Shown here piece after piece: positions 537-40,520 of a DNA stretch of 40,520 nt. Origin of the DNA: an uncultured Ignavibacteriales bacterium. GTDB lineage: Bacteria > Zixibacteria > MSB-5A5 > GN15 > JAAZOE01. The DNA is taken from contig CAZGLR010000014.1 of assembly GCA_964526635.1 (NCBI GenBank), forward strand, positions 1-40,520. The letters are read 5' to 3'. The notes beneath the pieces were generated by a model. That model saw only the letters and a list, made by a program, of their open reading frames with translations, did not search any database and was not told where the DNA came from. A program made the position numbers and the translations under genes. Each line of letters starts with the position of its first letter. The stretch's first letter is position 1.

Positions 537-908
537 ATGGCACTCGATGATCCCCGAATCTTTGAACTCCATGCCGGGTTCTGTAAAGTCATCGCCAATT
601 CCAAACGGCTCATGATTGTCTCCCTCCTGGCCGATGGCGAAAAGAGCGTGGGGGAATTGGCTGAGGCCCTGGATTCGCCGCTGGCCAATGTCAGCCAGCA
701 TCTGCGCATCCTCAGGGATCACCACATCGTGACTATCAGGAAAATGGCCCAGACGGTGTACTATCGTCTCACCGACCGGCGGCTCCCCGAAGCCTGTCAG
801 CTTATCCGTACGATTTTGTTGGAAAGCCTGACTCAGCAGGTGGAACTGGCCTGCGACGAAAGCTCGGAACGACAGGTACACCGGATATTTACGAAAAAGG
901 GAAGATGA
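537..908 (+). CDS. ArsR/SmtB-family metalloregulatory transcriptional repressor
   Basis: HTH motif SVGELAEALDSPLANVSQHLRILRD typical of the ArsR family; about 120 aa; ATG at 537 preceded by aaaggat (the track's TTG at 519 is less likely); stop overlaps the next gene's ATG (ATGA at 905-908). Confidence 0.8.
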   Translation: MALDDPRIFELHAGFCKVIANSKRLMIVSLLADGEKSVGELAEALDSPLANVSQHLRILRDHHIVTIRKMAQTVYYRLTDRRLPEACQLIRTILLESLTQQVELACDESSERQVHRIFTKKGR

Positions 909-3460
909 GTATGAATAGAGTTATCGGGTTTCGGATGTTCGCACTCGGGTGTCTGCTGACACTGTTTTTTGCGGCCACACTGCAGGGAGCACACCCACCG
1001 ATCATGCTGCTCGATGCCGAGGGGAATGAGATCAATCCCATCACCGGGGATAACGCCGATCAACCGTTCTCGACGGCGATGACCTGCGGCATTTGTCACG
1101 ATTATGAGACCATCACCGGCGGGTATCATTTTCAAATGGGCTGGGATGTGGTCAGTGATACATTCGGCGTTGTCGATGCCAAACCCTGGCAGATATCCAA
1201 TGGTATGATGGGTAAATGGTGTCCATTATACTTCAGGCAACTGGCCAAAAAAGAAAACGAATCGGCGGACGCTATCGACCTGACCGTCTATGACTTTGTA
1301 GGCTTCTCTGACGGCAATGGCTCGCCATATCCCTGCGGCGCCTGCCATCCCGGCGGCGGCGGTCTGGAGTATGACCGCGAGGGTAACCGGTATGATGAAA
1401 TGATGGCCGAAAATCCGGAACTGGCCGAGACTCTCGATGGTGACTACTATCAAAGCAAGTGGCACGAAAGCGGGGTTGTCGAGGCCGATTGCTTTGTTTG
1501 CCATCTCGATGGCTATGCCTTTGAGGAGCGGACTTATCAACTGGAACAGGGCAACTACAAATGGGCCGTAGTCTCCGGTACCGGCTATGGCATCGTGAGC
1601 GGTTCGGTCAAGCGCGGCCGGGAGCCATCGGTTGTCTATAACACGAAGTTTTTCAATGCCGATGGCACTATCAAACTCGACGTCAGTTGGCCCCCGCCTG
1701 ACAAAAACTGCGTGTTCTGCCATGGTCAGTCCGACAGCCGCAAGCGCGGTTTTTCCTGGAATGATATTCATAACTCCGATGTTCACAACAGCCAGGGTAT
1801 CTCCTGTGCCGCCTGTCATCCCTCCGGACTCGATCATCAATTTGCCAAAGGCAATGCCCGGGCGCTCAATGTGGCCGACCATCTCGACGATACCATGATG
1901 GATTGCAAGGAATGCCATGCCGATGGCTACCTCGGTGCAACCGTCCCGGATCATCATTCAGTCAGGCCGTCGCATCTGGAACGTATCGCTTGTGAAGCCT
2001 GTCATATTCCATCGCTGAACCTGTCGGCTGTTCGAGGCGTGGAATCGGCGACCGGAGAACTCGAATTCACATTCCGACCTGATTCGGTCGATGATTTCGG
2101 TGAATACGGTACCTGGTATCCTGATTATGAACGCTGGATAGAAAAGAAGATTTATCCTTTTAATACGCTGGTGATCAACTGGTGGGGAAACTACCAGGAT
2201 GGTGTTATTTATCCCCTGTTCCTGCGGGAGCAGGAAGCCATCTGGCCGTTGTATGCAGACCGGGTGACCGATGATAACGACGATGGCGACCCCGAAGTCA
2301 ATCGTGGCGAGGAGATTCTGGCCGGAATAGAAGCAACCGCCAGAGGGCTGGACGGCAACCAGCGGTTCAGCGAAATTCACCCGGTTTATGTCAAGGCGGG
2401 TACCGCCTGGCATCTGAATGAAGACGGCGTCCTCGATACGCTGCCGTTTGACGAAGTTACCTGTATTATGTATTCGATCAGTCATAATGTGGCCCCGGCG
2501 CGGTTTGCGCTGGGTGTCAACGGCTGCGGTGATTGCCATGACCATGAGGCGCATTTCTTCAAGGGCCGGCGCGTGCTCGATCTGTATGACTCCACCGGTG
2601 CCGCGGTTACGCGCGGCAATGGCTACTTCTTTGGCTGCAACCCGTTTTCATTTACAATCAATACTTTCCACCAGCAGATTCTCAGCCCGATCGTGAGTAT
2701 ACTCATTATCATTGTCATCTTCCTGGTGATATTGCATTATCACAGTTACGGCCCCAAGCATATACCGTTCATCCCCAATTCCGGTGAAGTGAAGCGGTTT
2801 TCACTGTATGAACGGGGGCTGCACCTGTTTCGCCTGATCTCATTTGTCGTGCTGAGTGTAACCGGTTTGATTATGGCTTTCAATCTCGTTTTGTGGCAGC
2901 AATTGCTGTTTAAATCACCACAGCAGATGCTTGAGTTCCATATCGGTTTCGGCATTGTGTTTTTGATTACCACGATACTGGGAATTGTGTCCTGGTACCG
3001 CGATGCCATCTTCAAGCCGCATGACAGGGAATGGATGAAAAAATTCGGCGGATATCTCGGCCACAAAGGTGAATTCACTTCGGGGCGCTTTAACGCCGGG
3101 CAGAAAATGTTTTACTGGTTTACTTCGATTTCGGGAATTCTGATTTCGGTGACAGGAGTTATTCTGACCTTTAAACCCATTACATCGCTGGCGACAGTCT
3201 GCATTACCTCGACTATCCATAACATCCTCGCTTTCATTATGATTGCCGGTGTTCTGGCCCATGCCTATCTCGGGACGGTGGCCAATCCGGGTACCTGGCG
3301 TGTGCTGGTCGACGGCTTCGTGACACGAATCTGGGCGGAACACCATCATCCGCAATGGTATCGGGAAAAGATGGCCCGCGGCGAAGTGGAAACCTGGGAT
3401 GAGGCTGAAGGTGACCAGAACAATGATCCTGATCCGGAAGCCGGCAAGGCTAATTCGTAA
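905..3460 (+). CDS. Octaheme c-type cytochrome fused to a C-terminal diheme cytochrome b (FdnI/HydC-like) membrane domain; CbcL-like quinone-interacting respiratory cytochrome
   Basis: N-terminal signal peptide; eight CxxCH motifs (CGICH, CGACH, CFVCH, CVFCH, CAACH, CKECH, CEACH, CGDCH); then 4-5 TM helices with conserved His (LHLFRL, EFHIGFG, IHNILAFIMIAGVLAHAYLG) as in the formate-dehydrogenase gamma / Ni-Fe hydrogenase cytochrome b family; 4-nt overlap with arsR. Confidence 0.8.
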   Translation: MSMNRVIGFRMFALGCLLTLFFAATLQGAHPPIMLLDAEGNEINPITGDNADQPFSTAMTCGICHDYETITGGYHFQMGWDVVSDTFGVVDAKPWQISNGMMGKWCPLYFRQLAKKENESADAIDLTVYDFVGFSDGNGSPYPCGACHPGGGGLEYDREGNRYDEMMAENPELAETLDGDYYQSKWHESGVVEADCFVCHLDGYAFEERTYQLEQGNYKWAVVSGTGYGIVSGSVKRGREPSVVYNTKFFNADGTIKLDVSWPPPDKNCVFCHGQSDSRKRGFSWNDIHNSDVHNSQGISCAACHPSGLDHQFAKGNARALNVADHLDDTMMDCKECHADGYLGATVPDHHSVRPSHLERIACEACHIPSLNLSAVRGVESATGELEFTFRPDSVDDFGEYGTWYPDYERWIEKKIYPFNTLVINWWGNYQDGVIYPLFLREQEAIWPLYADRVTDDNDDGDPEVNRGEEILAGIEATARGLDGNQRFSEIHPVYVKAGTAWHLNEDGVLDTLPFDEVTCIMYSISHNVAPARFALGVNGCGDCHDHEAHFFKGRRVLDLYDSTGAAVTRGNGYFFGCNPFSFTINTFHQQILSPIVSILIIIVIFLVILHYHSYGPKHIPFIPNSGEVKRFSLYERGLHLFRLISFVVLSVTGLIMAFNLVLWQQLLFKSPQQMLEFHIGFGIVFLITTILGIVSWYRDAIFKPHDREWMKKFGGYLGHKGEFTSGRFNAGQKMFYWFTSISGILISVTGVILTFKPITSLATVCITSTIHNILAFIMIAGVLAHAYLGTVANPGTWRVLVDGFVTRIWAEHHHPQWYREKMARGEVETWDEAEGDQNNDPDPEAGKANS

Positions 3461-3909: not shown

Positions 3910-4260
3910 ATGGTTTCAATGACGCGACAGGATTTTCTCGATAAGGTCTTTAACTACGAAAAGTCAAGCGCATGGACGTATCAGGGAAGTGCCCCCTGTG
4001 TGATAGACTTTCATGATGAAAGCTGTCCACCGTGCAAACATCTCGAGCCGATACTGGGTAAACTATCCGAAGAGTATGACGGCCGAGTTATTTTTTATAA
4101 AGTTGATATAAAGGCAGAGAAAGACCTCGCTGAAGAAGTCGGCATCCAGAATTTGCCGACCCTGGTTTTCTGCCCCCTCGATGATAAACCGATTGTGATG
4201 CAGGGTGCGGCCCCCCGAGAAAAAGTCGTGGCGGCGATCGAAAAAGAGCTTCTGGCCTGA
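3910..4260 (+). CDS. Thioredoxin-family protein
   Basis: CPPC active site in thioredoxin-fold context (SCPPCKHLEPILGKLSEEY...NLPTLVF); no signal peptide. Confidence 0.8.
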   Translation: MVSMTRQDFLDKVFNYEKSSAWTYQGSAPCVIDFHDESCPPCKHLEPILGKLSEEYDGRVIFYKVDIKAEKDLAEEVGIQNLPTLVFCPLDDKPIVMQGAAPREKVVAAIEKELLA

Positions 4261-30115: not shown

Positions 30116-31738
30116 TTACCCTGTCTTCTCTTCGGAGGTTGCGTCTAAGGCATTGGCCATCATATCCTCGGTCTTGATCCCGGCTTTTTTCAGGAGGTCA
30201 CCGACATCTATTCCGGCGGCTTTGGCCTGCTCCAGAAACTGGAACAGCATGGTTGGTCCGATTTTCGAAAAACGGTTCAAAGCGCTGTCATCTTTGCCGT
30301 TACCGCCGCTATCGACGACCACCAGTTTATCGATATTACCCATTGGAGCGGCAATCGATCCAAACACCGACCCGAGAGCCTGTATGGCTTGCGGCAGGAC
30401 TTTTAGAACTTCAAGTGTCAAAGCCGCTTCATTGAATTGCTGATAGGCTTTGGCGAGTTCGTTAATGGAGACAGCTTTGGCCAGTCCCTGTTTTTCAATG
30501 ACGTCGGCCTCTGCCAGACCCTTGCTCTGGGTGATTTCGGCTTCAGCCAAACCGGTGGCCTTTGTCGCAGCCGCCATACCTTCACCTTCAGCCTTGCGTT
30601 TATGCTGTTCAGCATCGGCCCGGGCGATAGTGGCGTATTTGTCGCCTTCGGCTTTTGCCTGCTGGGCTACCCGATAGCCCTCGGCTTCCTTGACACTGGC
30701 ATCAGCCTTGGCTTTGGCGGGTACCACGATCACCGCTTCCTGCGATTTTTGTTCTCGCAGAATGTTTTGCTCTTCTACTTCGATCTGGGCACGTGAACGT
30801 TCTTCCTCGATTTTAACCTCGGCAATGATGACCTTTTGCTTCTGCTCGGCGGTTGAGAGGGGACCGGCCTGATCGGTGACGGCCGTTTCGCGGGCAATCT
30901 CCGCCTGGTATATCTGCTTGGCAACCTGGGTGTTTTTTTGCGCTTCAGCCTCGAGCCGTTCATTTTCCTGGGCAACCACTTCGGCTGCCCGTTCGGCATC
31001 GGTGGCCCGCTTTTTGGCTTCAGCCAGTGCCTCGGCCTCGCCGATTGCGGCATCACGCTTGACTTCGGCAGTACGCTTTTTACCAAGGGCTTCGATATAG
31101 CCCAACTCGTCAGTAATAGACTGCGGGTTGAACACGTCTATCTGCATACCGAGTCGGGACAAATCTTCACCGGCTTCGCCCAGTACTTTCTGCCGAAAGG
31201 CGTCACGGTCTTTGATCAACTGATCGACTGTCAGGGTTCCGACCACACCGCGTAAGTTGGATTCAAGTGTTTCCCGTGCGACACTTTGTACATTTTCGTG
31301 TGACATGCCGAGGAACCGGGCTCCGGCCGCCAACAGGGATTGCGCGTCATCCTTGAAACGGATATTGGCCACCGCCTCCACCGTGACCAGCACGCCATCT
31401 ATATTAGGCATATTTTTGACAAAAATCTGAGGCAGTGAAATTTCGGTCAGATCAAGGAATTCGACCGCTTCAATAATCGGTTTGCGAATGCGGCCGCCAC
31501 CGGTAACGACCACTGTCCCGGGAGGGAGAACCGTAACGGTGGCCTCATCCGGACCTCCGATTTTTGCAATTTTCTGAATCCCCTTTTTGCCGCTTTTGGC
31601 GCCATAGAAAAAGGCCGCCTTATTCGGAGGGACCCGAACGTAATAGGCTGCCAACGCTTTGACCAATACAAAAAGTGCAATTATTGCGGCCAACCCAATC
31701 GCCGGCCAAATTAAAGTCCCAATTATTTCTTCAGACAT
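30116..31738 (-). CDS. Flotillin-family SPFH/band-7 protein (FloT/YuaG-like)
   Basis: N-terminal TM helix; SPFH domain then long Ala/Glu/Lys/Gln-rich coiled-coil (EA repeats) typical of flotillins; RBS GGAGGG. Confidence 0.85.
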   Translation of the reverse strand: MSEEIIGTLIWPAIGLAAIIALFVLVKALAAYYVRVPPNKAAFFYGAKSGKKGIQKIAKIGGPDEATVTVLPPGTVVVTGGGRIRKPIIEAVEFLDLTEISLPQIFVKNMPNIDGVLVTVEAVANIRFKDDAQSLLAAGARFLGMSHENVQSVARETLESNLRGVVGTLTVDQLIKDRDAFRQKVLGEAGEDLSRLGMQIDVFNPQSITDELGYIEALGKKRTAEVKRDAAIGEAEALAEAKKRATDAERAAEVVAQENERLEAEAQKNTQVAKQIYQAEIARETAVTDQAGPLSTAEQKQKVIIAEVKIEEERSRAQIEVEEQNILREQKSQEAVIVVPAKAKADASVKEAEGYRVAQQAKAEGDKYATIARADAEQHKRKAEGEGMAAATKATGLAEAEITQSKGLAEADVIEKQGLAKAVSINELAKAYQQFNEAALTLEVLKVLPQAIQALGSVFGSIAAPMGNIDKLVVVDSGGNGKDDSALNRFSKIGPTMLFQFLEQAKAAGIDVGDLLKKAGIKTEDMMANALDATSEEKTG

Positions 31739-31762: not shown

Positions 31763-32278
31763 TCATTGAATCTTTTCGACTGTGACTATGTTTCCGGTTT
31801 TACCGACAATTTTGACCACCGCACCCTTGTTGATTGACTCGCCGCTACTCGATCGCGCCAGAAAAGTAAATTCTCTGCCACGGACAATGCAGGAGACCTG
31901 CCCCGTCGCGCCATTATCGATCATATCGATTAAATTTGCTGTTTGGCCAATAATATCTGAATCACCAATAGTTGAACTTGCCTGGCTGCCGTAAAACATG
32001 CGCAGTATAAAGTACCCCATAGTGCAAAGGACTAATGCTCCCGCGACTCCGGTCAGGGAGGATTGAAGCATGCTAAAATCGGTTGTGGCTCGAATCCCAA
32101 ACCCGGTGCCACCGAAGCCGACCATTAGCAGCGCAAACATCTTAACGCTGAAGATGCTGGGACCATGACCAACATCGGCGTCAACGTCGACATCAAAATC
32201 GGCATCGGCATCGCCGAAAACAAGGCTGATAAGGAGAATGATAAAACCCAGGCCGAATATTAGCGCAAAGATAAGCAT
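31763..32278 (-). CDS. NfeD-family membrane protein (YuaF-like, C-terminal OB-fold)
   Basis: ATG 32278 with GGGGAGGA RBS; two TM segments then a soluble beta-rich C-terminus; immediately upstream of flotillin as in nfeD-floT operons. Confidence 0.7.
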   Translation of the reverse strand: MLIFALIFGLGFIILLISLVFGDADADFDVDVDADVGHGPSIFSVKMFALLMVGFGGTGFGIRATTDFSMLQSSLTGVAGALVLCTMGYFILRMFYGSQASSTIGDSDIIGQTANLIDMIDNGATGQVSCIVRGREFTFLARSSSGESINKGAVVKIVGKTGNIVTVEKIQ

Positions 32279-32660
32279 TGTATCCTCCCCGATTCTTATT
32301 CTGAATTGATATACTGTGGATATAGCGAAAAATTCAATTTTTTGCGACAATAATATAACAACCGATATCGGGGGGCGGCGATTTTTTCATTTCCCCCGGC
32401 AACATCGCCTTACCGTAATCCTGATCAGAATATTTTCATGGTCGTTTTTGTCAGGCTATGTCGATAGTTACTTGTCACCGGCCCGGGGCTTGGGGCCGAT
32501 AGGAAAATAAAGATCGGCACTAAAGTCAGCTCTTTTGAGTAATGCCCAATCTGTTTTGCAAAATTTCTTCTTTTGTAGATAGATTAATTACCGTCTATAA
32601 AATTTGATTTATATAAAGGAGATAATTGCTAATTGAGGCATTGGTTTATATACTGTCCTT

Positions 32661-33992
32661 GTGGATACTGAGTTCAACAGCACGACCGAGATTATTCTTA
32701 ACAGTATTGCCGATGGCGTCTTCACCGTCGACAATCAATGGCGCATCCGGTCATTCAATCGGGCCGCCGAAATCATCACCGGTATAAGTCGGGAAGAGGC
32801 TGTCGGGAGGCGTTGTTGTGACATCTTCCGGGCATCGATCTGCGAAAGCTCCTGCGCCCTGCGCCAGACCATGACTACCGGGACCAACATCCTCAACAAA
32901 ATCGTCTATATCATCAACAGCGATGGTGACCAGATACCGGTCAGTATCTCGACGGCGCTGCTCAAGGATAACGACGGCCGCGTGATTGGCGGGGTCGAGA
33001 CCTTCCGCAATCTCAGTGATATCGAACGACTGCGCCGTCAGCTCGAAAAACAATACACGTTCCAGGACATAATCAGCAAACATCCCCGTATGCTCGAGCT
33101 GTTTGATCTGCTCCCGGGGATCGCGGAAAGCGACAGCAGTGTGGTGATCCAGGGCGCCAGCGGCACCGGAAAGGAACTTGTCGCCAGGGCTATCCATGAT
33201 CTCTCGCGCCGCCGCAAAGGGCCGTTTATCGCCATTAATTGCGGGGCGCTGCCCGATACCCTGCTTGAGGCCGAGCTTTTTGGCTATAAAAAGGGCGCAT
33301 TCACCGACGCCCGCACCGACAAACCCGGGCGATTTGCCCAGGCCGAGAAGGGGACGTTGTTTCTCGATGAAATCAGCGATATCTCGCCAGCCATGCAATC
33401 GCGCCTTTTGCGCGTCCTCGAGAATAAAACATATGAACCGCTCGGGGCAACCGCCAGCGAAACAGCTAATGTGCGCATTATCGCCGCAACCAATAAACCG
33501 CTGTCCAAACTGATCGCCTCCGGCACCTTCCGGGAAGATCTGTTTTATCGCATTAATGTCATGGAAATCAGCCTGCCTCCGCTCAAAGAGCGGCGCGGGG
33601 ATATTCCCCTGCTGGTGAGCCATTTTGTAAACCATTTCAATACCATGACCGCCAAAAATATAAATGATATTTCCCCGGCCGCCCTGGAAACCCTGATGAA
33701 TCATGATTACCCCGGCAATATCCGGGAATTACAGAATATTATTGAACATGCCTTTGTCGTAAACCGAAAAGGCATTATCGAAACCGCCGACTTGCCCGGC
33801 CATCTTTTGCCGGAAAAAAAACTGCATTCTTCCGAGCCTCAAACGCTTGATGAACTCGAAGCAAAACTCATCAGCAATGTCCTTCGTCGCAATGATTGGA
33901 ATCGGGCCCGGGCCGCGGCCGAACTGGGTATTCATCCCACGACGTTATGGCGTAAGATCAAAAAACTCGGGATCACAACCCCCAATTCATAG
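32661..33992 (+). CDS. Sigma-54-dependent transcriptional activator with N-terminal PAS sensor domain and C-terminal Fis-type HTH
   Basis: AAA+ sigma54-interaction motifs GASGTGKELVARAIH, GAFTDA (GAFTGA variant), ELFGY; C-terminal NRARAAAELGIHPTTLWRKIKKLGI; no receiver domain. Confidence 0.85.
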   Translation: MDTEFNSTTEIILNSIADGVFTVDNQWRIRSFNRAAEIITGISREEAVGRRCCDIFRASICESSCALRQTMTTGTNILNKIVYIINSDGDQIPVSISTALLKDNDGRVIGGVETFRNLSDIERLRRQLEKQYTFQDIISKHPRMLELFDLLPGIAESDSSVVIQGASGTGKELVARAIHDLSRRRKGPFIAINCGALPDTLLEAELFGYKKGAFTDARTDKPGRFAQAEKGTLFLDEISDISPAMQSRLLRVLENKTYEPLGATASETANVRIIAATNKPLSKLIASGTFREDLFYRINVMEISLPPLKERRGDIPLLVSHFVNHFNTMTAKNINDISPAALETLMNHDYPGNIRELQNIIEHAFVVNRKGIIETADLPGHLLPEKKLHSSEPQTLDELEAKLISNVLRRNDWNRARAAAELGIHPTTLWRKIKKLGITTPNS

Positions 33993-34139
33993 CATTGCAT
34001 TACCGCAATTGTAGTTTCTTGAAATATTGCAAATATGCAATATTTTTAGTGCGTTCATGCGAAGTCGATTAATCGATGAACATTTTAATCAATTGTACCA
34101 CAATAATATATTGTTTTCTTGTTTGTGTTTTGCTTATGT

Positions 34140-34155
34140 CGGCAAGCCTTTTGCT
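34140..34155 (+). promoter_or_regulatory. Putative sigma-54 (-24/-12) promoter cGGCAAgccttTTGCT
   Basis: GG and GC correctly spaced versus consensus TGGCAC-N5-TTGC; immediately upstream of the NifX-like operon and downstream of a sigma-54 activator gene; leader to ATG 34172 is unusually short. Confidence 0.4.
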
Positions 34156-34171
34156 TTTATGTTACAACGTT

Positions 34172-34582
34172 ATGGAAAGGGTTGCAATTCCGCTATATAA
34201 TGGACGGGTATCGCCGGTCTTCGATACCGCCACACAGGTTCTGGTCGCTGCCTGTGGCGCTCGCCAGTATTACATCGAAAAGACACTGAGTCTCAAGACA
34301 TCAGATCCGGCCCAACGGTGCCGTTGTCTTGCCGAAAACGGCATCACGGTCATTCTTTGCGGTGGGATATCCCGGCGATTTCTGGCCTATTTACGGAAGT
34401 ACAATATTGTTGTTCATTCTTTTTTAAGCGGGCCGATACCGCAGATCCTGAGAACGTATGTTCGTGATTTTGAACATCTCCAGGATCATCGCCAAATCAG
34501 GCAACGTCCACAGCATCATCGCCGGCGACGAACGGGACATCGGATGCAGCCGCCATCTCAGAAAAAAATGGAGTCGAAATGA
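34172..34582 (+). CDS. NifX/NifB-C-like (dinitrogenase FeMo-cofactor-binding family) domain protein 1
   Basis: MERVAIPLYNGRVSPVFDTATQVLV...ENGITVILCGGIS matches the Nitro_FeMo-Co family pattern; Arg/His-rich tail may indicate an uncertain 3-prime end or a frameshift. Confidence 0.55.
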   Translation: MERVAIPLYNGRVSPVFDTATQVLVAACGARQYYIEKTLSLKTSDPAQRCRCLAENGITVILCGGISRRFLAYLRKYNIVVHSFLSGPIPQILRTYVRDFEHLQDHRQIRQRPQHHRRRRTGHRMQPPSQKKMESK

Positions 34583-34944
34583 AAATTGCTGTTTCAGCTC
34601 AACAGGATTCATTGTCCAGTCCGGTCGATCCGCGGTTTGGCCGGGCCCCGTTTTTCATCATTTATGATACCGACACCGATTCGCACGAAATTATCTCGAA
34701 TGCGGAAAATGTAACGGCCGGGCAGGGTGCCGGCATCCAGGCGGTCCAATTGGTGGCGGGTCATAATGTTGAAATGGTCATTTCCGGCCGCGTCGGTCCC
34801 AAGGCATTCGTGGCGCTTGGCACCGCCGGCATCAGGGTTGCCTCATGGCAGCAGGGCACGGTTTCCGAGGCTATCGATCTGGCCCGGGATAACCGACTTG
34901 AATTTATCAACCAGGCCAATGCCGCGGCTCATTGGCAGCAATAA
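34579..34944 (+). CDS. NifX/NifB-C-like domain protein 2
   Basis: MKIAVSAQQDSLSSPVDPRFGRAPFFIIYDTDT...QLVAGHNVEMVISGRVGPKA family pattern; RBS tggag; 4-nt overlap with the upstream ORF. Confidence 0.7.
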   Translation: MKIAVSAQQDSLSSPVDPRFGRAPFFIIYDTDTDSHEIISNAENVTAGQGAGIQAVQLVAGHNVEMVISGRVGPKAFVALGTAGIRVASWQQGTVSEAIDLARDNRLEFINQANAAAHWQQ

Positions 34945-34969
34945 GCTATATACGGGAGGTGAGTACCAC

Positions 34970-35251
34970 GTGACACCTGACAGCACCAGAGGCGGCCGAC
35001 GATTTCGACTGCGCGGGAATAAGGCGGTGCGCAACAGCGGACTGACTCTTCTGGCTACGTCAATTGTATCGGCCATTACCTACGATCTCAAACAGCCGGA
35101 CAGTATCGTACGCGGCCTGATTGGATCCGGGTATCGCGCGCTTAAATCGCTGGCTGCCCCTCGCCGGGGTCAGGATGTTTCTGATCTGGTGGACGTTACC
35201 GACGTTGCCCCGGCTGAAATTATTGAAGATGAATCGAAGCGAAAGGAGTAA
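34970..35251 (+). CDS. Small hypothetical protein (GTG start, about 93 aa)
   Basis: Fills a 310-nt gap inside the operon; GGGAGGTGA RBS 9 nt before GTG 34970; acidic C-terminus; no family recognised. Confidence 0.3.
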   Translation: MTPDSTRGGRRFRLRGNKAVRNSGLTLLATSIVSAITYDLKQPDSIVRGLIGSGYRALKSLAAPRRGQDVSDLVDVTDVAPAEIIEDESKRKE

Positions 35252-35255
35252 CACC

Positions 35256-35615
35256 ATGCCAGGAGGAGATCGTACCGGACCATTGGGTGCCGGACCATTA
35301 ACCGGTCGAGGCGCCGGCTTTTGCCGTGGCGCCGGGCAACCGGGTTTTTATACTCGCGGTGGTCGCGGCCGGGGTGTCAACCGTCCTTTCGGCGGTCGTG
35401 GTGGTCGCCGGCGCGGCGATTTCTACTATCAACCTGATGCCGTCGGATGGACCCGCGGCAGTGGCGAACCGATTATGGCGGCGGCAGACGCGGCGTATCA
35501 GGACGAAAATACCGGTCTGCAGCAGCAAATTGACAATTTGACCAAAACGGTCGAAGCACTCGGCAGCCGGGTAAAGCAATTGCTGCGGAAGGACACCAAA
35601 GATGATGCAAAGTAA
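35256..35615 (+). CDS. DUF5320-like Gly/Arg-rich protein with C-terminal coiled coil
   Basis: AAAGGAG RBS; N-terminus MPGGDRTGPLGAGPLTGRGAGFCRGAGQPGFYTRGGRGRG resembles the MPRGDGTGPxGxGPxTGRG signature of DUF5320 proteins that accompany MinD-ferredoxin/NifX-like clusters; C-terminal helix QQQIDNLTKTVEALGSRVKQLL. Confidence 0.6.
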   Translation: MPGGDRTGPLGAGPLTGRGAGFCRGAGQPGFYTRGGRGRGVNRPFGGRGGRRRGDFYYQPDAVGWTRGSGEPIMAAADAAYQDENTGLQQQIDNLTKTVEALGSRVKQLLRKDTKDDAK

Positions 35616-35853
35616 AGGACGCGGCGGCGGCCAGGGACAGGGCGGTGGTCGCGGTCAGGGACAGGGCGGTGGTCGCGGCCAGGGCCAGGGACGTGGTCAG
35701 GGTCAGGGACGCGGCGGCGGGCCGAATATGCAGCGCGGACCCGGGGGTGAGTGTATCTGCAATAACTGCGGTGCGATCGTCCCGCATGAACCCGGTGTTC
35801 CCTGCATGGATCAGACCTGCCCGAAATGCGGCGGGACGATGGTAAGGAAGTAA
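35602..35853 (+). CDS. Gly/Arg/Gln-rich low-complexity protein with C-terminal 4-Cys zinc ribbon
   Basis: Overlaps the upstream stop by 14 nt; GRGQGQGGGRGQGQGGGRGQGQGRGQGQGRGGG then CICNNCGAIVPHEPGVPCMDQTCPKCGG. Confidence 0.55.
   Translation: MMQSKGRGGGQGQGGGRGQGQGGGRGQGQGRGQGQGRGGGPNMQRGPGGECICNNCGAIVPHEPGVPCMDQTCPKCGGTMVRK
35632..35720 (+). repeat. Imperfect tandem DNA repeat (about 24-nt unit ggacagggcggtggtcgcggtcag, about 3.5 copies) encoding (GRGQGQGG)n
   Basis: Read directly from the sequence. Confidence 0.8.
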
Positions 35854-35867
35854 CGCGGAACGACTGC

Positions 35868-36716
35868 ATGAGAATAGCCTTTGCCAGTGGAAAGGGTGGT
35901 ACCGGTAAGACAACGCTGGCCACCAATTTGACAGCATGGCTCGCTGATCAGGGCGAGACAGTTTGCTATGCCGACTGCGATGTGGAAGAACCTAACGGGC
36001 ATATTTTTCTCAAACCGGAGATTGAGGACACCATTGACGTGACTGTCCCGATTCCGGTAATAGACGCAGAGGCCTGTGATGCCTGCGGCGAATGTGTGAC
36101 GCATTGTCAGTTCAATGCCATAGCTCTTTTGGGCAAAACTGTCGCAGTTTTCCCAACACTCTGCCACAGTTGCGGGGTGTGCAGTGCCATCTGTCCTCAG
36201 CAGGCGATTACTGAATCATCCCGGTCGCTTGGCACGATTACTATCGGTCGCGGCCGTGGCGCTGGTGTGTATACCGGGCGTCTGACGGTTGGCGAAGCGC
36301 TGGCCCCGCCGGTCAGCAGAGCGCTGAAAAGCCTGTTACCCGATGACGGCACCATAATTATCGATGCTCCGCCGGGCACGTCCTGTCCCGTGATTGAAGC
36401 GGTAACCGGATGTGACTATCTGGTATTGGTAACCGAACCGACACCGTGCGGCCTCCATGATCTCTGTCTGGCCCTTGAGATGGCGGGAAAGCTCCATCTG
36501 CCCTGTGGTGTCGTGATAAATAATGACGATGGCGACCCCGATACGGAAGTCGCGATCGCCTCCAGGGGCGCAGAAATTCTACAGACTATCGCATATCAGC
36601 CGCATCTGGCCCGAAAGTATTCCGAGGGACACATGTTGATCGATGCTGATCCGGGCTATGCCTGGAAGATGAAACATCTCTATGGCAAAATAACACGGGC
36701 GGTGGCGCATGGCTGA
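35868..36716 (+). CDS. MinD/ParA-superfamily P-loop ATPase with inserted 2x[4Fe-4S] ferredoxin domain (COG1149-type)
   Basis: Deviant Walker A SGKGGTGKTT; CDACGECVTHCQFNAI and CHSCGVCSAICPQQAI CxxCxxCxxxCP clusters. Confidence 0.85.
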   Translation: MRIAFASGKGGTGKTTLATNLTAWLADQGETVCYADCDVEEPNGHIFLKPEIEDTIDVTVPIPVIDAEACDACGECVTHCQFNAIALLGKTVAVFPTLCHSCGVCSAICPQQAITESSRSLGTITIGRGRGAGVYTGRLTVGEALAPPVSRALKSLLPDDGTIIIDAPPGTSCPVIEAVTGCDYLVLVTEPTPCGLHDLCLALEMAGKLHLPCGVVINNDDGDPDTEVAIASRGAEILQTIAYQPHLARKYSEGHMLIDADPGYAWKMKHLYGKITRAVAHG

Positions 36717-37635
36717 GATGGTCTTTATCAGTGGCAAAGGGGGGACCGGGAAGACCACTGTGTGTGCCAGTCTGGGGCATCTTCCTGAATCCTGTGTGCT
36801 GACAGACTGCGATGTGGATGCAGCCAATTTGCATCTGCTGGTCAACTACAACACCAAAGAAACACATGATTTTTCCACCAGTGCGGTGGCGTCGATCGAT
36901 CAGACTGCCTGCGATTCCTGCGGGCTGTGTTTTGATTTGTGTCGTTTTTCGGCCATCAGCCGTACCTATAAATCCGATGTACCGGGAAAATATGAATACC
37001 GCGTGGAGCCGCTTGCCTGTGAGGGCTGCGGTATGTGCCGTTACATGTGCCCGCAAAAGGCGGTTGAACTGAAACCGGTACGCAGCGGCCAGTGGTTTAT
37101 CTCCGAAACCGAGCGCGGGCCGTTTTATCATGGCCGCCTTGATATCGCTCAGTCCAATTCCGGCCGCCTGGTTTCTCTGCTGCGCAAAAAGGCACAGGAA
37201 GCCGCGCGCGTCTCGAACATCCCGCTGCTGCTCACCGATGGTCCTCCGGGGATTGGCTGCCCCGTAATTGCATCAATAACCGGCGCCGACCTGGTCGTGG
37301 CTGTTTCGGAACCATCGCGCTCGGCCTTTCATGATCTGCAACGGATTGTTGAGTTGACGACATTTTTCTCGCTCCCGGCGGTCGTGTGTATTAACAAATA
37401 CGATATCAATCCAGAAATCTCCCGTCACATCGAGGAATTCGCGCAGGAACATCATCTGCCGGTTGTAGCCAGGTTGCGCGTTGACCGGGCAGTGATCGAC
37501 GCCCAGCGAACCGGGCGACCGTATCTCGATGTTGCGATCGACTATAACCGTCGCGAATTGATTAAAATGTGGAATACAGTAATTGATCGATTGCCTGACC
37601 TCAATGGCACCAGGCAACGGCGTTTTGCCGTCTGA
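36709..37635 (+). CDS. Second MinD/ParA-type ATPase with inserted 2x[4Fe-4S] ferredoxin domain
   Basis: SGKGGTGKTT; CDSCGLCFDLCRFSAI and CEGCGMCRYMCPQKAV; 8-nt overlap with the upstream paralog. Confidence 0.85.
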   Translation: MAEMVFISGKGGTGKTTVCASLGHLPESCVLTDCDVDAANLHLLVNYNTKETHDFSTSAVASIDQTACDSCGLCFDLCRFSAISRTYKSDVPGKYEYRVEPLACEGCGMCRYMCPQKAVELKPVRSGQWFISETERGPFYHGRLDIAQSNSGRLVSLLRKKAQEAARVSNIPLLLTDGPPGIGCPVIASITGADLVVAVSEPSRSAFHDLQRIVELTTFFSLPAVVCINKYDINPEISRHIEEFAQEHHLPVVARLRVDRAVIDAQRTGRPYLDVAIDYNRRELIKMWNTVIDRLPDLNGTRQRRFAV

Positions 37636-37664
37636 TGAAAATGAATGAAATGGAGAAGACAACA

Positions 37665-38048
37665 ATGAAAATAGCCATCCCTACCGAAAACGGCCGGCTG
37701 TGCGCCCATTTCGGACACAGCCCGCAGTTTACCCTGGTCGATGTCAACGCTGATACCGGCCTGATAGAAAACAGGTCAACGATGACTCCACCGCCGCATG
37801 ACCGTGGTGTCCTCCCGGCCTGGCTGCGCGAGCTCGGGTGCACGCACATCATTGCCGGTGGTATGGGCGGTCGGGCGCTGACGCTTTTTGCCCAGCAGGG
37901 CATCGAAGTAGTGTGTGGGGTCGGTGAGTCGGATATTGACGACATTATCGCAGCTTTTTTTGCCGGCACGCTGGCGACTGATAACAATCCCTGCAGTGAT
38001 CCCTCGTTTCATGCGGGGGGGCATACTGATTGCGAGCATCGTCATTAG
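37665..38048 (+). CDS. NifX/NifB-C-like domain protein 3 with Cys/His-rich C-terminal extension
   Basis: MKIAIPTENGRLCAHFGHSPQFTLVDV...HIIAGGMGGRALTLFAQQGIEVV; tail NPCSDPSFHAGGHTDCEHRH; RBS ggagaag. Confidence 0.7.
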   Translation: MKIAIPTENGRLCAHFGHSPQFTLVDVNADTGLIENRSTMTPPPHDRGVLPAWLRELGCTHIIAGGMGGRALTLFAQQGIEVVCGVGESDIDDIIAAFFAGTLATDNNPCSDPSFHAGGHTDCEHRH

Positions 38049-38133
38049 ATGCCGCCGGTTGATGAACAAATAGTGACACTTACAACCTGTGCCGGTCTTT
38101 ATGGTCGGCGTAAGGAATAGATGGAAAGCAACT

Positions 38134-39588
38134 ATGCGAACAGATCCGATCTCTGAAGAACAACGTAAGACGGCTTTTGCGGCCACCAAAAAGCCGGATG
38201 TGATGGAGCGGCAAAAGCTGGCGGTGCGATATCATGTCGAGGATTACGATATTGCCGACCGGCCACGGAAATTTCTGGAGGCCTTTGCCGCAATTTTGCG
38301 GCATACCAATTATCGTTTTGCTCTGGATCATTTCGCGCGGGTCTCGGCAAAGTGCGCCCGATGTTCGGTCCAGTGCCCGGTGTATCAGGCGACCGATGAT
38401 GTCACCGACATCCCCTGCCATCGATCTGAATTGCTGCTGAAGGTCTATAAACGGCACTTTACCCTGGGCGGTATGTTCCAGGGCCGCCTGACCGGCAGTG
38501 GCCACCTGACCGACAGCGATATCGAAGAGATGGCCGACTCGTTCTGGAATTGCACCGCCTGCCGGCGCTGCACGCTGGAATGCCCGGTCGGCATCGATCA
38601 TGCCCTGATTACCCATCTTGGCCGTTTCATCCTCAGCGAAATTGGTATTGCCCCCCGGGCGCTGGTCGTCAGTACCCGTGAACAGCTCGAAGGTAAAACC
38701 GGTAACACTTCGGCTATACCGCTGCCGGCCCTGGTCGATACCCTCGAATTTCTTGAAGAGGATATGAAAGAGGAAAAGGGCGTCGATATTAAATTCCCGC
38801 TCGATGTCGATGGCAGCGAATACCTCTTTATGCCGGCGGTCTCCGATTTTTTGATGGAGGCCGAGACCCTGATGGGTATCGCAGCTGTCTTTGCCGCCAC
38901 CGGCGGTTCCTGGACAATCAGCACGGAATACTTCGATGCAATCAACTACGGCCTCTTTTACAATGATCGCATTCTTGAACGGGTCATTCGCAAGCTGTAT
39001 GCCGAATCCGAGCGGCTGCATACCAGGGCTATACTGATCGGTGAATGCGGCCATGCTTCGCGTACGGCCAAATATTTCGTGCCGGTGCATTGCGGTGGCG
39101 ATAAAGCCAGGCCCGTGTTGAATATCATGGAATACACATATCGCATGCTGAAAGAAGGCAAACTCAAACTCGATCCCAACGTGATCACCGAACGGGTGAC
39201 ATATCACGATCCTTGCAACATCGCCCGTCAGGGCTGGGTCGTTGACCAGCCGCGTGAGATTATCCGGGCTTTCTGCAAAGACTTTGTTGAGATGACCCCG
39301 CGCCGTACCGAAAACATCTGTTGCGGTGGCGGTGGCGGATCGGTATCGATCGATGAAATCCGTCCCTATCGCACGACGATCGGCGGCAAGGCCAAGGCCG
39401 ACCAAATTCGTAACACCGGCGCCAGGTACGTTATTGCGCCATGCGCCAACTGCAAAAAGCAATTGCGGGAACTGGTCGAAGATCAGCGAATCGACTGCGA
39501 AGTCATCGGGCTGCATGATCTGATCTACAAAGCAATTATTTTCGATACTGTCCCGCAGCCATCACCCGAAACCGTGGAGAAAGGATAA
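38134..39588 (+). CDS. HdrD/DsrK/GlpC-like Fe-S oxidoreductase with CCG domain
   Basis: Cys clusters CARCSVQCP and CTACRRCTLECP; CCG-domain signature HDPCNIARQG...ICCGGGGGS...APCANCKKQL; start at ATG 38134 preferred. Confidence 0.75.
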   Translation: MRTDPISEEQRKTAFAATKKPDVMERQKLAVRYHVEDYDIADRPRKFLEAFAAILRHTNYRFALDHFARVSAKCARCSVQCPVYQATDDVTDIPCHRSELLLKVYKRHFTLGGMFQGRLTGSGHLTDSDIEEMADSFWNCTACRRCTLECPVGIDHALITHLGRFILSEIGIAPRALVVSTREQLEGKTGNTSAIPLPALVDTLEFLEEDMKEEKGVDIKFPLDVDGSEYLFMPAVSDFLMEAETLMGIAAVFAATGGSWTISTEYFDAINYGLFYNDRILERVIRKLYAESERLHTRAILIGECGHASRTAKYFVPVHCGGDKARPVLNIMEYTYRMLKEGKLKLDPNVITERVTYHDPCNIARQGWVVDQPREIIRAFCKDFVEMTPRRTENICCGGGGGSVSIDEIRPYRTTIGGKAKADQIRNTGARYVIAPCANCKKQLRELVEDQRIDCEVIGLHDLIYKAIIFDTVPQPSPETVEKG

Positions 39589-39591
39589 CCA

Positions 39592-40296
39592 GTGCAGGAG
39601 ATACTCGATTTTTGCCGCGGCCCGCTGTTCCGATTTTCCTTTTTACTTATGGTCTTCGGACTGCTCCGCATCCTGGTCCTTGATATCTGGCAGGCGTTGA
39701 TCGCATGGCGCCGGGCCGGGGACAAGCGACTTGCGTGGAAGTCGGCGACAGTCAATACTTTACACTGGCTGTTTCCGATTAAAAAGACGTTTACCCGAAA
39801 ACCGGTCTATAGCCTGGTTTCTATATTGTTTCACGTCGGCTTGATCACTGTCCCGATTTTTCTGGCCGCTCATATTACACTCTGGCACGAGAGTACCGGT
39901 ATCAGATGGTGGGCCATGCCGCACAGCCTGGCTGACTGGCTGACGATCTCCACGATTGTCTTTGCCCTGACCTTGTTTGCCTGGCGGGTGCTCAGCCGTG
40001 ATGCCCGCTTTCTCAGCCGCAGCCAGGACTATCTTTGGCCGATTTTGCTGAGTATCCCGTTTATTACCGGCTATGCCTGCGTCAATACCGCTTTGAGTGC
40101 GCGAGCGTATGAATTCAGTATGCTGCTGCATGTGCTGTCGGCGAACCTGATTTTCGTCATGATACCGTTTTCGAAAATCGCCCATTGTGTCATCCAGCCG
40201 TTGTCGCAATTCATGCTGGCCCTGGCCTGGAAATTCCCGGCCCGCATCGATGATAAAATTGCCACGACTCTCAAGAAGAAAGGAGCGCCGGTATGA
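39592..40296 (+). CDS. NarI/DsrM/HdrE-like integral membrane cytochrome b
   Basis: 5 TM helices with conserved His (LFHVGLITVPIFLAAHITLWH, LLHVLSANLIFVMIPFSKIAH), as in nitrate-reductase gamma-like subunits that pair with HdrD/DsrK. Confidence 0.65.
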   Translation: MQEILDFCRGPLFRFSFLLMVFGLLRILVLDIWQALIAWRRAGDKRLAWKSATVNTLHWLFPIKKTFTRKPVYSLVSILFHVGLITVPIFLAAHITLWHESTGIRWWAMPHSLADWLTISTIVFALTLFAWRVLSRDARFLSRSQDYLWPILLSIPFITGYACVNTALSARAYEFSMLLHVLSANLIFVMIPFSKIAHCVIQPLSQFMLALAWKFPARIDDKIATTLKKKGAPV

Positions 40297-40520
40297 AGGC
40301 TATCCTGACTGATGTCACCAAATGTATCGGCTGCCGGGAATGTGTTGTCGCATGTAAGGAAAAGCATAACCTCGAAACCGATGTCCCGCGGTTGTTTCAT
40401 CGCACCGATGGCCTGTCGGCCTCAAACTGGACGTCGATTCTGCAGCGCCCCGATGAGCGCTATATCCGCAAGCAGTGCCGTCATTGTATCGAGCCGGGTT
40501 GTGTCTCGGCCTGTCCGGTC
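40293..40520 (+). CDS. 4Fe-4S ferredoxin-type iron-sulfur subunit (DsrO/HybA/DmsB-like), 5-prime partial at window end
   Basis: ATGA overlap with the upstream gene; CIGCRECVVAC and CRHCIEPGCVSACP cluster motifs; continues beyond the window. Confidence 0.7.
   Translation, partial: MKAILTDVTKCIGCRECVVACKEKHNLETDVPRLFHRTDGLSASNWTSILQRPDERYIRKQCRHCIEPGCVSACPV

Follow-up and report, generated by a model that had tools for sequence, protein, structure and literature searches.

An orp locus and an Hmc-like paralogue of DsrMKJOP arranged head to tail in a Zixibacteria-like bacterium

Gene content and organization of the locus

The DNA considered here (the window; contig CAZGLR010000014.1, 40,520 nucleotides) is a contig of a metagenome-assembled genome (MAG) from a Zixibacteria-like bacterium, and the region followed up extends on its plus strand from position 32661 to the contig end. 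It encodes a sigma-54 enhancer-binding protein (EBP) followed by a series of co-directional open reading frames (ORFs), here termed g1 to g11 (Table 1). Our analysis suggests that the region comprises two gene sets of known kinds arranged head to tail, namely an orp locus (32661-38048), related to that encoding the orange protein (ORP) complex of Desulfovibrio vulgaris, and, from 38134, a module for a membrane redox complex resembling the Desulfovibrio Hmc complex. Taken as a whole, the explanation developed below for this arrangement is probable without being secure. The original prediction for this DNA, made from the sequence alone, had counted at least ten same-strand ORFs behind the activator gene; eleven were found, and the quoted spacings are exact, with overlaps of 4 nt (g1/g2 and g10/g11), 14 nt (g4/g5) and 8 nt (g6/g7), and a 3-nt gap between g9 and g10.

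Start codons were set using ribosome-binding sites and homologues. The start of g9 at 38134 is supported by the N-terminal pattern MRT..I..EE..KAF kept in its relatives, and agrees with an identical 484-aa database protein. The window is the entire contig, and exact-protein look-ups with g7 and g10, aimed at extending it, gave no match. An Rfam search over the whole window returned no match.

Two samples of related loci, referred to by L numbers, were compared with the window. On the module side, a one-genome-per-species scan with g9 yielded 80 loci, and 3 more came from exact-protein look-ups, giving 83 relatives, or 84 module loci with the window. The g9 homologues are 66-83% identical in the 80 scanned loci and 66-84% over all 83. 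The MAGs of the scanned loci are labelled Zixibacteria, Ignavibacteria, Kryptonia, Acidobacteria, Eisenbacteria and LCP-89, and the nearest named relatives of g9 are Zixibacteria. On the orp side, 80 metagenome loci were found with an alignment of four MinD-ferredoxin sequences; g7 alone as metagenome query retrieved no relatives.

Table 1. Features of the region from the activator gene to the contig end (window coordinates)
Feature	Position	Strand	Description
EBP	32661-33992	+	OrpR-type sigma-54 enhancer-binding protein (PAS, AAA+, HTH_8)
Candidate activator site 1	33995-34008	.	TTGCATTACCGCAA
Candidate activator site 2	34022-34045	.	Perfect inverted repeat AAATATTGCA-N4-TGCAATATTT
Predicted sigma-54 -24/-12 element	34140-34155	+	CGGCAAGCCTTTTGCT; GG at 34141-42, GC at 34153-54
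g1	34172-34582	+	Weak NifX-like domain with cationic His/Arg tail (IssA-like architecture)
g2	34579-34944	+	Orange protein (ORP/Orp8) homologue, single NifX-like domain
g3	34970-35251	+	Small basic protein, 93 aa, lineage-restricted
g4	35256-35615	+	DUF5320 protein, N-terminal half Gly/Arg-rich
g5	35602-35853	+	Gly/Arg/Gln-repeat protein, C-terminal CxxC-N13-C-N4-CxxC; probably Orp5-type small Fe-S protein
g6	35868-36716 (longest ORF from 35826)	+	MinD/ParA-type ATPase with 2x[4Fe-4S] ferredoxin insert (Orp3/Orp4-like)
g7	36709-37635	+	Second MinD/ParA-type ATPase with ferredoxin insert (Orp3/Orp4-like)
g8	37665-38048 (longest ORF from 37635)	+	Stand-alone NifX-like domain, MrpORP C-terminal type
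Junction g8-g9	38049-38133	+	85 nt, exactly between the orp genes and the Hmc-like module
g9	38134-39588 (not 38089)	+	Cytoplasmic CCG Fe-S subunit, DsrK/HmcF/TmcB paralogue
g10	39592-40296	+	Di-haem cytochrome b membrane subunit (TmcC/HmcE-like)
g11	40293-40520, runs off contig	+	N-terminal 76 aa of a four-cluster ferredoxin subunit (HmcB/HybA/DsrO-like)

The orp genes

Judged from its predicted proteins, the segment 32661-38048 represents an orp locus like those studied in D. vulgaris and already known from sulfate reducers. In that organism the ORP complex is specified by two divergent sigma-54-dependent operons, DVU2103-2105 and DVU2107-2109, controlled by OrpR (DVU2106) with IHF (PMC3897727, PMC8359166, PMC6345978). 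The set of NifX-like, DUF5320 and MinD-ferredoxin proteins, which had been regarded as lacking an assigned function, is thus the orp cluster with its regulator OrpR described in these three studies.

NifX-like domains (PF02579, Nitro_FeMo-Co) had been predicted for this part of the region and are clearly present in g2 (84 bits) and g8 (70.2 bits), with g1 falling marginally under the cut-off (25.9 against 26.3 bits). The best match of g2 in the PDB is the ORP of D. gigas (2WFB_A; E=1.8e-18, residues 2-106 of 121). The g8 protein displays the motif CAHFGH ... DCEH as described in PMC6345978, and is matched by the NCBIfam MrpORP profile (116.4 bits, cut-off 450) over profile positions 258-365 only. 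It shares with MrpORP (Orp9; PMC6345978) the C-terminal NifX-like domain with CxHFGH and a terminal C-(D/E)-H, and differs in lacking the cluster-transferring P-loop NTPase domain; the window ORFs scanned include no gene of the Mrp type. In g1 the weak domain is joined to an unstructured cationic tail (pI 11.8), a layout shared with IssA (PF2025) of Pyrococcus furiosus, a thioferrate storage protein (PMC5524996) with an IPR003731/NifX-like domain, and g4 and g5 add further cationic Gly/Arg-rich segments. This likeness is one of architecture only: the g1 domain match is marginal and its tail is His/Arg-rich, whereas that of IssA is Gly/aromatic-rich. Homologues of g1 lie right after the EBP gene in L007, L016, L083, L092, L114 and L134.

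Of the Gly/Arg-rich proteins previously taken to be DUF5320-like, g4 belongs to the family (PF17253, 71.2 bits against a cut-off of 27), whereas the Gly/Arg-rich g5 matches no Pfam or NCBIfam family, DUF5320 included. The Cys-rich C-terminus of the g5 type is kept in L083 (125 aa) and in 20 of the 80 orp loci. It is probably the counterpart of Orp5, with which it was matched by description, Orp5 being a small [2Fe-2S] protein of the ORP operon (PMC6345978). The small protein g3 has no Pfam or NCBIfam match; its homologue in L016 occupies the same position, and GGGAGGTGAG lies upstream of its GTG start. Among 1.84e9 representative proteins only 3 relatives of g3 were recovered (39-58% identity, 87-92 aa).

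The twin MinD-ferredoxin ATPases were correctly anticipated: CbiA and Fer4 domains are found both in g6 (56.6 and 44 bits) and in g7 (43.1 and 35.2 bits), and each protein has a deviant Walker A motif, KGGTGKT, and two CxxCxxCxxxC motifs. In domain makeup and motifs they appear to match Orp3 and Orp4, which are likewise MinD-like ATPases with two [4Fe-4S] motifs each. DUF5320, the 4-Cys protein and the MinD-Fer4 pair form a recurrent set across the 80 metagenome loci. All 80 pair a g7 homologue with a g6 homologue; 54 have NifX-like genes, 22 have DUF5320, 20 have the 4-Cys protein and 8 have an OrpR-like activator.

As in the D. vulgaris orp1/orp2 operons with OrpR (DVU2103-DVU2109), the sigma-54 activator has an iron-sulfur (Fe-S) PAS domain (C52, D/E54, C61, C65) and a GAFTDA loop, the -24/-12 promoter has palindromic activator sites about 110-150 nt ahead of it, and the genes include two MinD-like ATPases bearing ferredoxin motifs, a small Cys protein and a NifX-like protein of the ORP type. 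The window differs in having one co-directional operon rather than two divergent ones, and in its activator site, which is TTGCA-N4-TGCAA as opposed to GGGCGYRTTTTGCGCCC in D. vulgaris. It also lacks the Mrp/NBP35 ATPase, of which only the C-terminal NifX-like domain is present, free as g8, and adds the IssA-like g1, the lineage-specific g3 and the downstream Hmc-like complex. By analogy with the proteins studied in PMC6345978 and PMC5524996, the most plausible role of the orp part is in handling anionic Fe-S or metal-sulfide species, which would suit its NifX-like carriers, its cationic Gly/Arg proteins and its ATP-driven pair of MinD type.

The OrpR-type activator and its promoter

The EBP contains the domains Sigma54_activat (221.6 bits), PAS_9 (47.4 bits) and HTH_8 (58.3 bits). 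OrpR of D. vulgaris senses redox potential via a [4Fe-4S] cluster in its PAS domain, for which C52, C61 and C65 are needed, with D/E54 conserved nearby (PMC8359166), and DVU2106 is listed with the GAFTDA variant of the sigma-54 contact loop (PMC4641369). The window EBP has C52, D54, C61 and C65 at the published OrpR numbering (GRR-C52-C-D54-IFRASI-C61-ESS-C65) and a GAFTDA loop at residue 212. These PAS ligand residues are kept in all 40 aligned EBPs, position 54 being N in two. The window EBP is 68-69% identical to EBP1 of L007, and neighbour-joining ordering places it among the orp-linked EBPs, apart from paralogues linked to the module.

Sites of the form TTGCA-N4-TGCAA occur in the window only at 33995-34040, 100-145 nt upstream of the -24/-12 element; likewise, all three matches to TTGCANNNNTGCAA in the 40.5-kb window, allowing at most one mismatch, fall inside 33995-34040. 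They stand in the intergenic region in place of the 17-bp OrpR site of D. vulgaris, GGGCGYRTTTTGCGCCC, which is absent. Paired TTGCA-N3-4-TGCAA palindromes are found at the same place in L007, L016, L083 and metagenome orp loci. Between the activator sites and the promoter there is only a half-match to an IHF site (AATCAATTGTACC at 34087), and no IHF site is claimed.

The candidate promoter CGGCAAGCCTTTTGCT begins 148 nt past the EBP stop codon. Equivalent -24/-12 elements at the same distance from the first gene are seen in L007 (CGGTACGCTTCTTGCC), L083 (CGGTACGAATTATGCT) and L016 (TTGGCACAAATTTTGTA), and promoters of the TGGCAC-N5-TTGC type in L114, L134, L097 and L141. Nine other orp loci (L007, L016, L083 and six metagenome loci) keep the same layout, in which the orp-linked activator gene is followed by one or two palindromes, an A/T-rich spacer, a GG-N10-GC element and, shortly after it, the first gene. 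Hence the sigma-54 dependence put forward in the original prediction now has comparative evidence, the -24/-12 and palindrome layout being kept in relatives, and CGGCAAGCCTTTTGCT is supported as a predicted sigma-54 promoter by its position and its conservation.

In the window (34153-34172), L007 (about 4175-4191), L016 and L083, the -12 GC lies only 14-17 nt before the start codon of the first orp gene; the leader of g1 would therefore be very short, and its mRNA nearly leaderless.

The Hmc-like module

The CCG Fe-S protein and the ferredoxin subunit predicted for the downstream part are recovered as g9 and g11. The g9 protein combines CCG (46 bits) and Fer4_8 (39.8 bits) domains, and its NCBIfam matches are DsrK (289.7 bits, cut-off 400), TmcB (212.8 bits) and HmcF (201.1 bits, cut-off 750). 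The constellation C361-X34-CC-X39-CxxC (C361, C396, C397, C437, C440) and two 4-Cys motifs (C74/77/81/95 and C140/143/146/150) are invariant in 84 sequences. Among solved structures of DsrK/HdrD relatives, only one distant chain, 9ojn_A, was found for g9. The g10 protein, foreseen as a NarI-like cytochrome b, is indeed a cytochrome b, of the TmcC/HmcE type with four His (H81, H94, H180, H198) invariant in 79 sequences. It scores 120.4 bits with TmcC and 110.6 bits with HmcE (HmcE cut-off 275), both under cut-off, and has no DsrM match; the NarI-like label finds no Pfam counterpart at E<=1e-5, Nitrate_red_gam included, and the L082 orthologue has only a "faint" Nitrate_red_gam entry.

The truncated g11 is 78% identical to its L007 orthologue, a ferredoxin that scores 254 bits with HmcB (cut-off 420), 218 bits with HybA and 116.5 bits with DsrO (cut-off 200); this subunit has 16 invariant Cys, and Fer4_11 in relatives. 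A fourth gene, off the contig here and seen in relatives, encodes an NrfD-like subunit whose best match is HmcC (238 bits, cut-off 550), with no DsrP match, and which ends in a hexahaem cytochrome c domain: six CxxCH motifs are fused to the NrfD-like C-terminus in all 70 orthologues. The set of CCG subunit, cytochrome b, Fer4_11 ferredoxin and NrfD-cytochrome is present in every relative with enough downstream sequence.

Two side observations concern these subunits. In the ferredoxin (window 40293-40520; L007 12150-12920) and all 78 orthologues the first Cys motif stands right at the start and neither a Tat nor a Sec signal precedes it, yet alignment to the HmcB, HybA and DsrO profiles sets in only at about position 37-45; at the other end a C-terminal transmembrane helix is followed by KRRERLR. 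Directly after the NrfD-cytochrome gene, most relatives (e.g. L007 14783-16682) encode a response regulator of about 145 aa and a PAS histidine kinase of about 489 aa.

The module shares with HmcABCDEF of Desulfovibrio a CCG protein (HmcF-like), a cytochrome b (HmcE-like), a ferredoxin (HmcB-like), an NrfD-like protein (HmcC-like) and a multihaem cytochrome c. It is distinct from Hmc in several respects: all module NCBIfam scores lie under the equivalog cut-offs, even though HmcB and HmcC are the best matches for their subunits; its cytochrome is six-haem and fused to the NrfD-like subunit, whereas HmcA is separate and 16-haem; the gene order is F-E-B-C, with no HmcD counterpart between or beside the four genes; the ferredoxin lacks a signal peptide; and a paralogue of OrpR appears to regulate many of the relatives. 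With DsrMKJOP it has in common the CCG catalytic subunit (invariant C-Xn-CCG-Xn-CxxC), the di-haem cytochrome b and the occurrence of dsrAB nearby in 13 of the 83 relatives. It departs from DsrMKJOP in scoring under the DsrK cut-off, in its order K-M-O-P and in having no DsrJ-type trihaem cytochrome, and the two co-exist in L039.

In that locus (L039 98-11437, a Bryobacteraceae MAG), the Hmc-like module is directly preceded by a canonical dsrA-dsrB-dsrL-like-dsrC-dsrM-K-J-O-P cluster. Its dsrA and dsrB were identified by tblastn; DsrC and each of the five DsrMKJOP subunits exceed their NCBIfam cut-offs. The module is recognized as a paralogue of DsrMKJOP because canonical DsrK (729 bits) stands here beside the g9 orthologue (300 bits). 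From its predicted subunits the module is thus a putative transmembrane electron conduit, an Hmc-like paralogue of DsrMKJOP and not DsrMKJOP itself. The HdrDE/DsrMK-like module of the original prediction stands as a DsrMK paralogue; it is, however, closer to Hmc than to HdrDE, and it continues with the NrfD-hexahaem subunit. HdrDE was rejected as the closest family, the NCBIfam matches pointing to DsrK, TmcB and HmcF, and NrfD, ferredoxin and cytochrome c subunits being present.

The same evidence bears on the proposition that the module is the organism's actual DsrMKJOP, i.e. the terminal reductase that acts on DsrC trisulfide in sulfite respiration. In NCBIfam g9 matches DsrK best, dsrAB lies within 10 kb of the module in the 13 loci mentioned (MAGs labelled Acidobacteria, Ignavibacteria, Kryptonia and Eisenbacteria), and DsrMKJOP is the terminal reductase of sulfate respiration (PMC10861901). 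Yet g9, at 289.7 bits, falls short of the cut-off of 400, for the remaining subunits HmcB, HmcC, HmcE and TmcC are better matches than DsrO, DsrP and DsrM, L039 has its canonical dsrMKJOP directly upstream of the module, and neither dsrC nor dsrAB is found in the window or in the Zixibacteria loci, so that we regard this identity as quite improbable. Paralogues named dsrM2 and dsrK2 have been noted near dsrAB in Acidobacteria (PMC6018796), and the module may correspond to these.

Arrangement of the two gene sets across relatives

The module has an activator gene of its own (EBP2), a sigma-54 promoter and a leader gene ahead of it in 39 of the 83 relatives. EBP2 is about 50% identical to the window activator, keeps the three PAS cysteines and the GAFTDA loop, and groups in the neighbour-joining ordering with other module-linked EBPs, apart from the orp-linked ones. 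Its intergenic region contains palindromes GTTGCA...TGCAAC and a TGGCAC-N5-TTGCA promoter. These features point to a previously undescribed regulon, comprising an OrpR paralogue, sigma-54 and a NifX-like leader protein, for the Hmc-like DsrMKJOP paralogue in these 39 loci.

The leader gene (about 250 aa; L007 9186-9962 and 38 other loci, e.g. L083 7173-7931), which is absent from the window, encodes a protein whose N-terminal domain is NifX-like and whose conserved Cys-rich C-terminal domain, about 150 aa long, matches nothing in Pfam or NCBIfam. Other NifX-like genes are found near the module: in L047 (15068-17555) the module is separated from dsrAB by a NifX-like gene (143 aa), an IS-type transposase and a PRK04217/DUF134-like gene, and L029, L030, L032, L036, L038, L042 and L043 have NifX-like and DUF134-like genes paired about 10 kb downstream of it.

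The fusion of both sets into one operon, central to the original prediction, does not represent a conserved design, since in relatives the module is its own four-gene set and in 39 of 83 has its own control. Nor is the linkage consistent in the neighbourhood survey: only 3 of 83 relatives have orp genes at most 10 kb from the module, and a module orthologue occurs in none of the 80 orp metagenome loci, where other CCG/cytochrome b pairs lie near orp in 2 of 34 long loci (L104, L135), about chance level. The neighbourhood of orp and module does recur in Zixibacteria, in three layouts that are reported here for the first time: in tandem with EBP2 between them (L007, L016), divergent (L083, probably L004) and fused (the window).

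The window is the only one of 84 loci where EBP2 and the leader are missing and the module follows the last orp gene after just 85 nt; the missing EBP2/leader stretch amounts to about 2.4 kb. The closest relatives of g9 (82-84% identity) all retain EBP2 and the leader gene, which argues that the state of the window is derived. L005 (Zixibacteria MAG B22_G1; g9 78% identity) also lacks EBP2 and the leader upstream of 5741, with no orp genes there; the loss of a private regulator is therefore not unique to the window.

The junction and the origin of the direct join

The 85-nt junction between g8 and g9 (38049-38133) contains no terminator-like or sigma-70-like site, no GG-N10-GC element, no EBP palindrome and no remnant of the EBP2 or leader gene known from relatives, and its RNA fold is unremarkable (z-score -0.49). 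Read-through from the orp promoter into the module is likely, judging from this stretch, because the roughly 2.4 kb that hold the module's EBP2, promoter and leader elsewhere are absent here. The window would then represent one lineage, newly recognized here, whose complex seems to have come under the orp promoter.

A competing view is that the two sets are independent units, the module having a promoter of its own that escaped recognition and the adjacency being a rearrangement scar without meaning. Regulation is separate in every relative, the 85-nt gap contrasts with overlaps and gaps of at most 25 nt elsewhere in the cluster, and L005, without EBP2, leader or upstream orp genes, indicates that the module can exist without them. 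Against this, no sigma-70-like, sigma-54-like or activator site is seen in or just before the junction, no terminator follows g8, and all genes lie on the same strand; we consider independence somewhat unlikely. That the join is an artefact of assembly might be suspected from a layout unique among the 84 loci on a contig that is a MAG record. The closest relatives on both sides are, however, of the Zixibacteria type (the EBP at 68-69% to EBP1 of L007, g9 at 81% to L007), the junction bears no likeness to EBP2, leader or activator sites (repeats at the join were not searched for separately), and a simple 2.4-kb deletion suffices to explain the layout, because the two sets are neighbours in other Zixibacteria genomes. 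An artefact is accordingly highly improbable.

Proposed mode of action

The gene identities, the promoter architecture and the layouts across relatives are shown by the data above; that the two sets are co-transcribed, that redox state controls them in this organism and what either system acts on are inferred. Under the favoured reading, holo-OrpR would activate sigma-54 RNA polymerase at 34140-34155 under reducing conditions, and the transcript would continue through g1-g8 into g9-g11 and the off-contig NrfD-cytochrome gene. Control by the lost EBP2 would thereby be replaced by a regulator of the same sensory type, such that one activator switches both sets on. The module itself might move electrons among the periplasmic hexahaem domain, the quinone pool and the cytoplasmic CCG site, where the CCG subunit would reduce or oxidise a substrate of the disulfide or trisulfide type.

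Several observations weigh against parts of this reading. The bare -24/-12 pattern is not above chance, with 12 two-mismatch matches in the window against 19.5 expected, and the element deviates from consensus, having CGGCAA instead of TGGCAC. An unrecognised promoter may lie in the junction or inside g8. The direct join is seen in 1 of 84 loci, on a metagenome-assembled contig. No dsrC or dsrAB that would indicate a substrate for the CCG subunit is present in the window or the Zixibacteria loci, and even in Desulfovibrio the physiological role of ORP proteins is not settled, cell division having been proposed (PMC8359166). Because it was seen in 1 of 84 related loci, the join is mainly a hint that one redox control governs both systems.

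A stronger claim, close to that of the original prediction, is that the orp proteins form a dedicated ATP-dependent carrier or insertion system, for Fe-S or metal-sulfide species, that serves the CCG/cytochrome b complex, the fusion reflecting functional partnership. Zixibacteria have the two sets close together in three arrangements (L007 and L016 in tandem, L083 and probably L004 divergent, the window fused), the module's own operon starts with a NifX-like gene in 39 of 83 relatives, and NifX-like and DUF134-like genes lie near the module in other lineages. In addition, Fe-S clusters are transferred in vitro from MrpORP to Orp3/Orp4 (PMC6345978), and anionic Fe-S species are bound by cationic-tailed NifX-like domains (PMC5524996). 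On the other hand, MinD-Fer4 genes are missing within 10 kb in 79 of the 83 module loci, none of the 80 orp loci has a module orthologue (two have other CCG/cytochrome b pairs, about chance level), the OrpR regulon of D. vulgaris comprises the two orp operons only (PMC8359166), and where both sets are present each has a separate regulator and promoter. We therefore judge a dedicated partnership distinctly unlikely, and functional coupling between the orp proteins and the complex is a minority hypothesis.

Other genes in the window

Two further loci in the window lie outside the region described above. One, at 905-3460 (plus strand), encodes a protein of 851 aa in which a cytochrome b561-type membrane domain is joined to multihaem cytochrome c domains (Cytochrome_C7, MtrC/MtrF-like). 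The other lies on the minus strand shortly before the activator gene and comprises genes for a flotillin-like SPFH/Band 7 protein (30116-31738) and its NfeD-like partner (31763-32350).

Implications for the ORP complex and the Dsr/Hmc family

The ORP complex has a well-described regulator and, after more than a decade of work in Desulfovibrio, no agreed function. The relatives compared here define a distinct K-M-O-P::hexahaem variant of the Dsr/Hmc family, which could be mistaken for DsrMKJOP in metagenome annotation. OrpR paralogues with the same Fe-S ligands stand ahead of it in 39 of the 83 loci, its own operon there starts with a NifX-like gene, and in one lineage it has lost its private regulator and lies behind the orp genes. 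Taken together, these observations connect membrane complexes of the Dsr/Hmc type with NifX-like carriers of metal sulfide and with sigma-54 control by redox sensors, in a concrete form that can be tested. In the most far-reaching version of this link, which we hold at low probability, OrpR-family Fe-S sensors would control both orp and an undescribed Hmc-like DsrMKJOP paralogue, and NifX-like proteins (the orp set, the leader protein, or here orp alone) would partner the CCG complex, delivering or repairing its Fe-S clusters or carrying its (poly)sulfide or metal-sulfide species. If NifX-like proteins do prove to be partners of CCG complexes, the role of the ORP complex would lie in sulfur and energy metabolism, and not in cell division.

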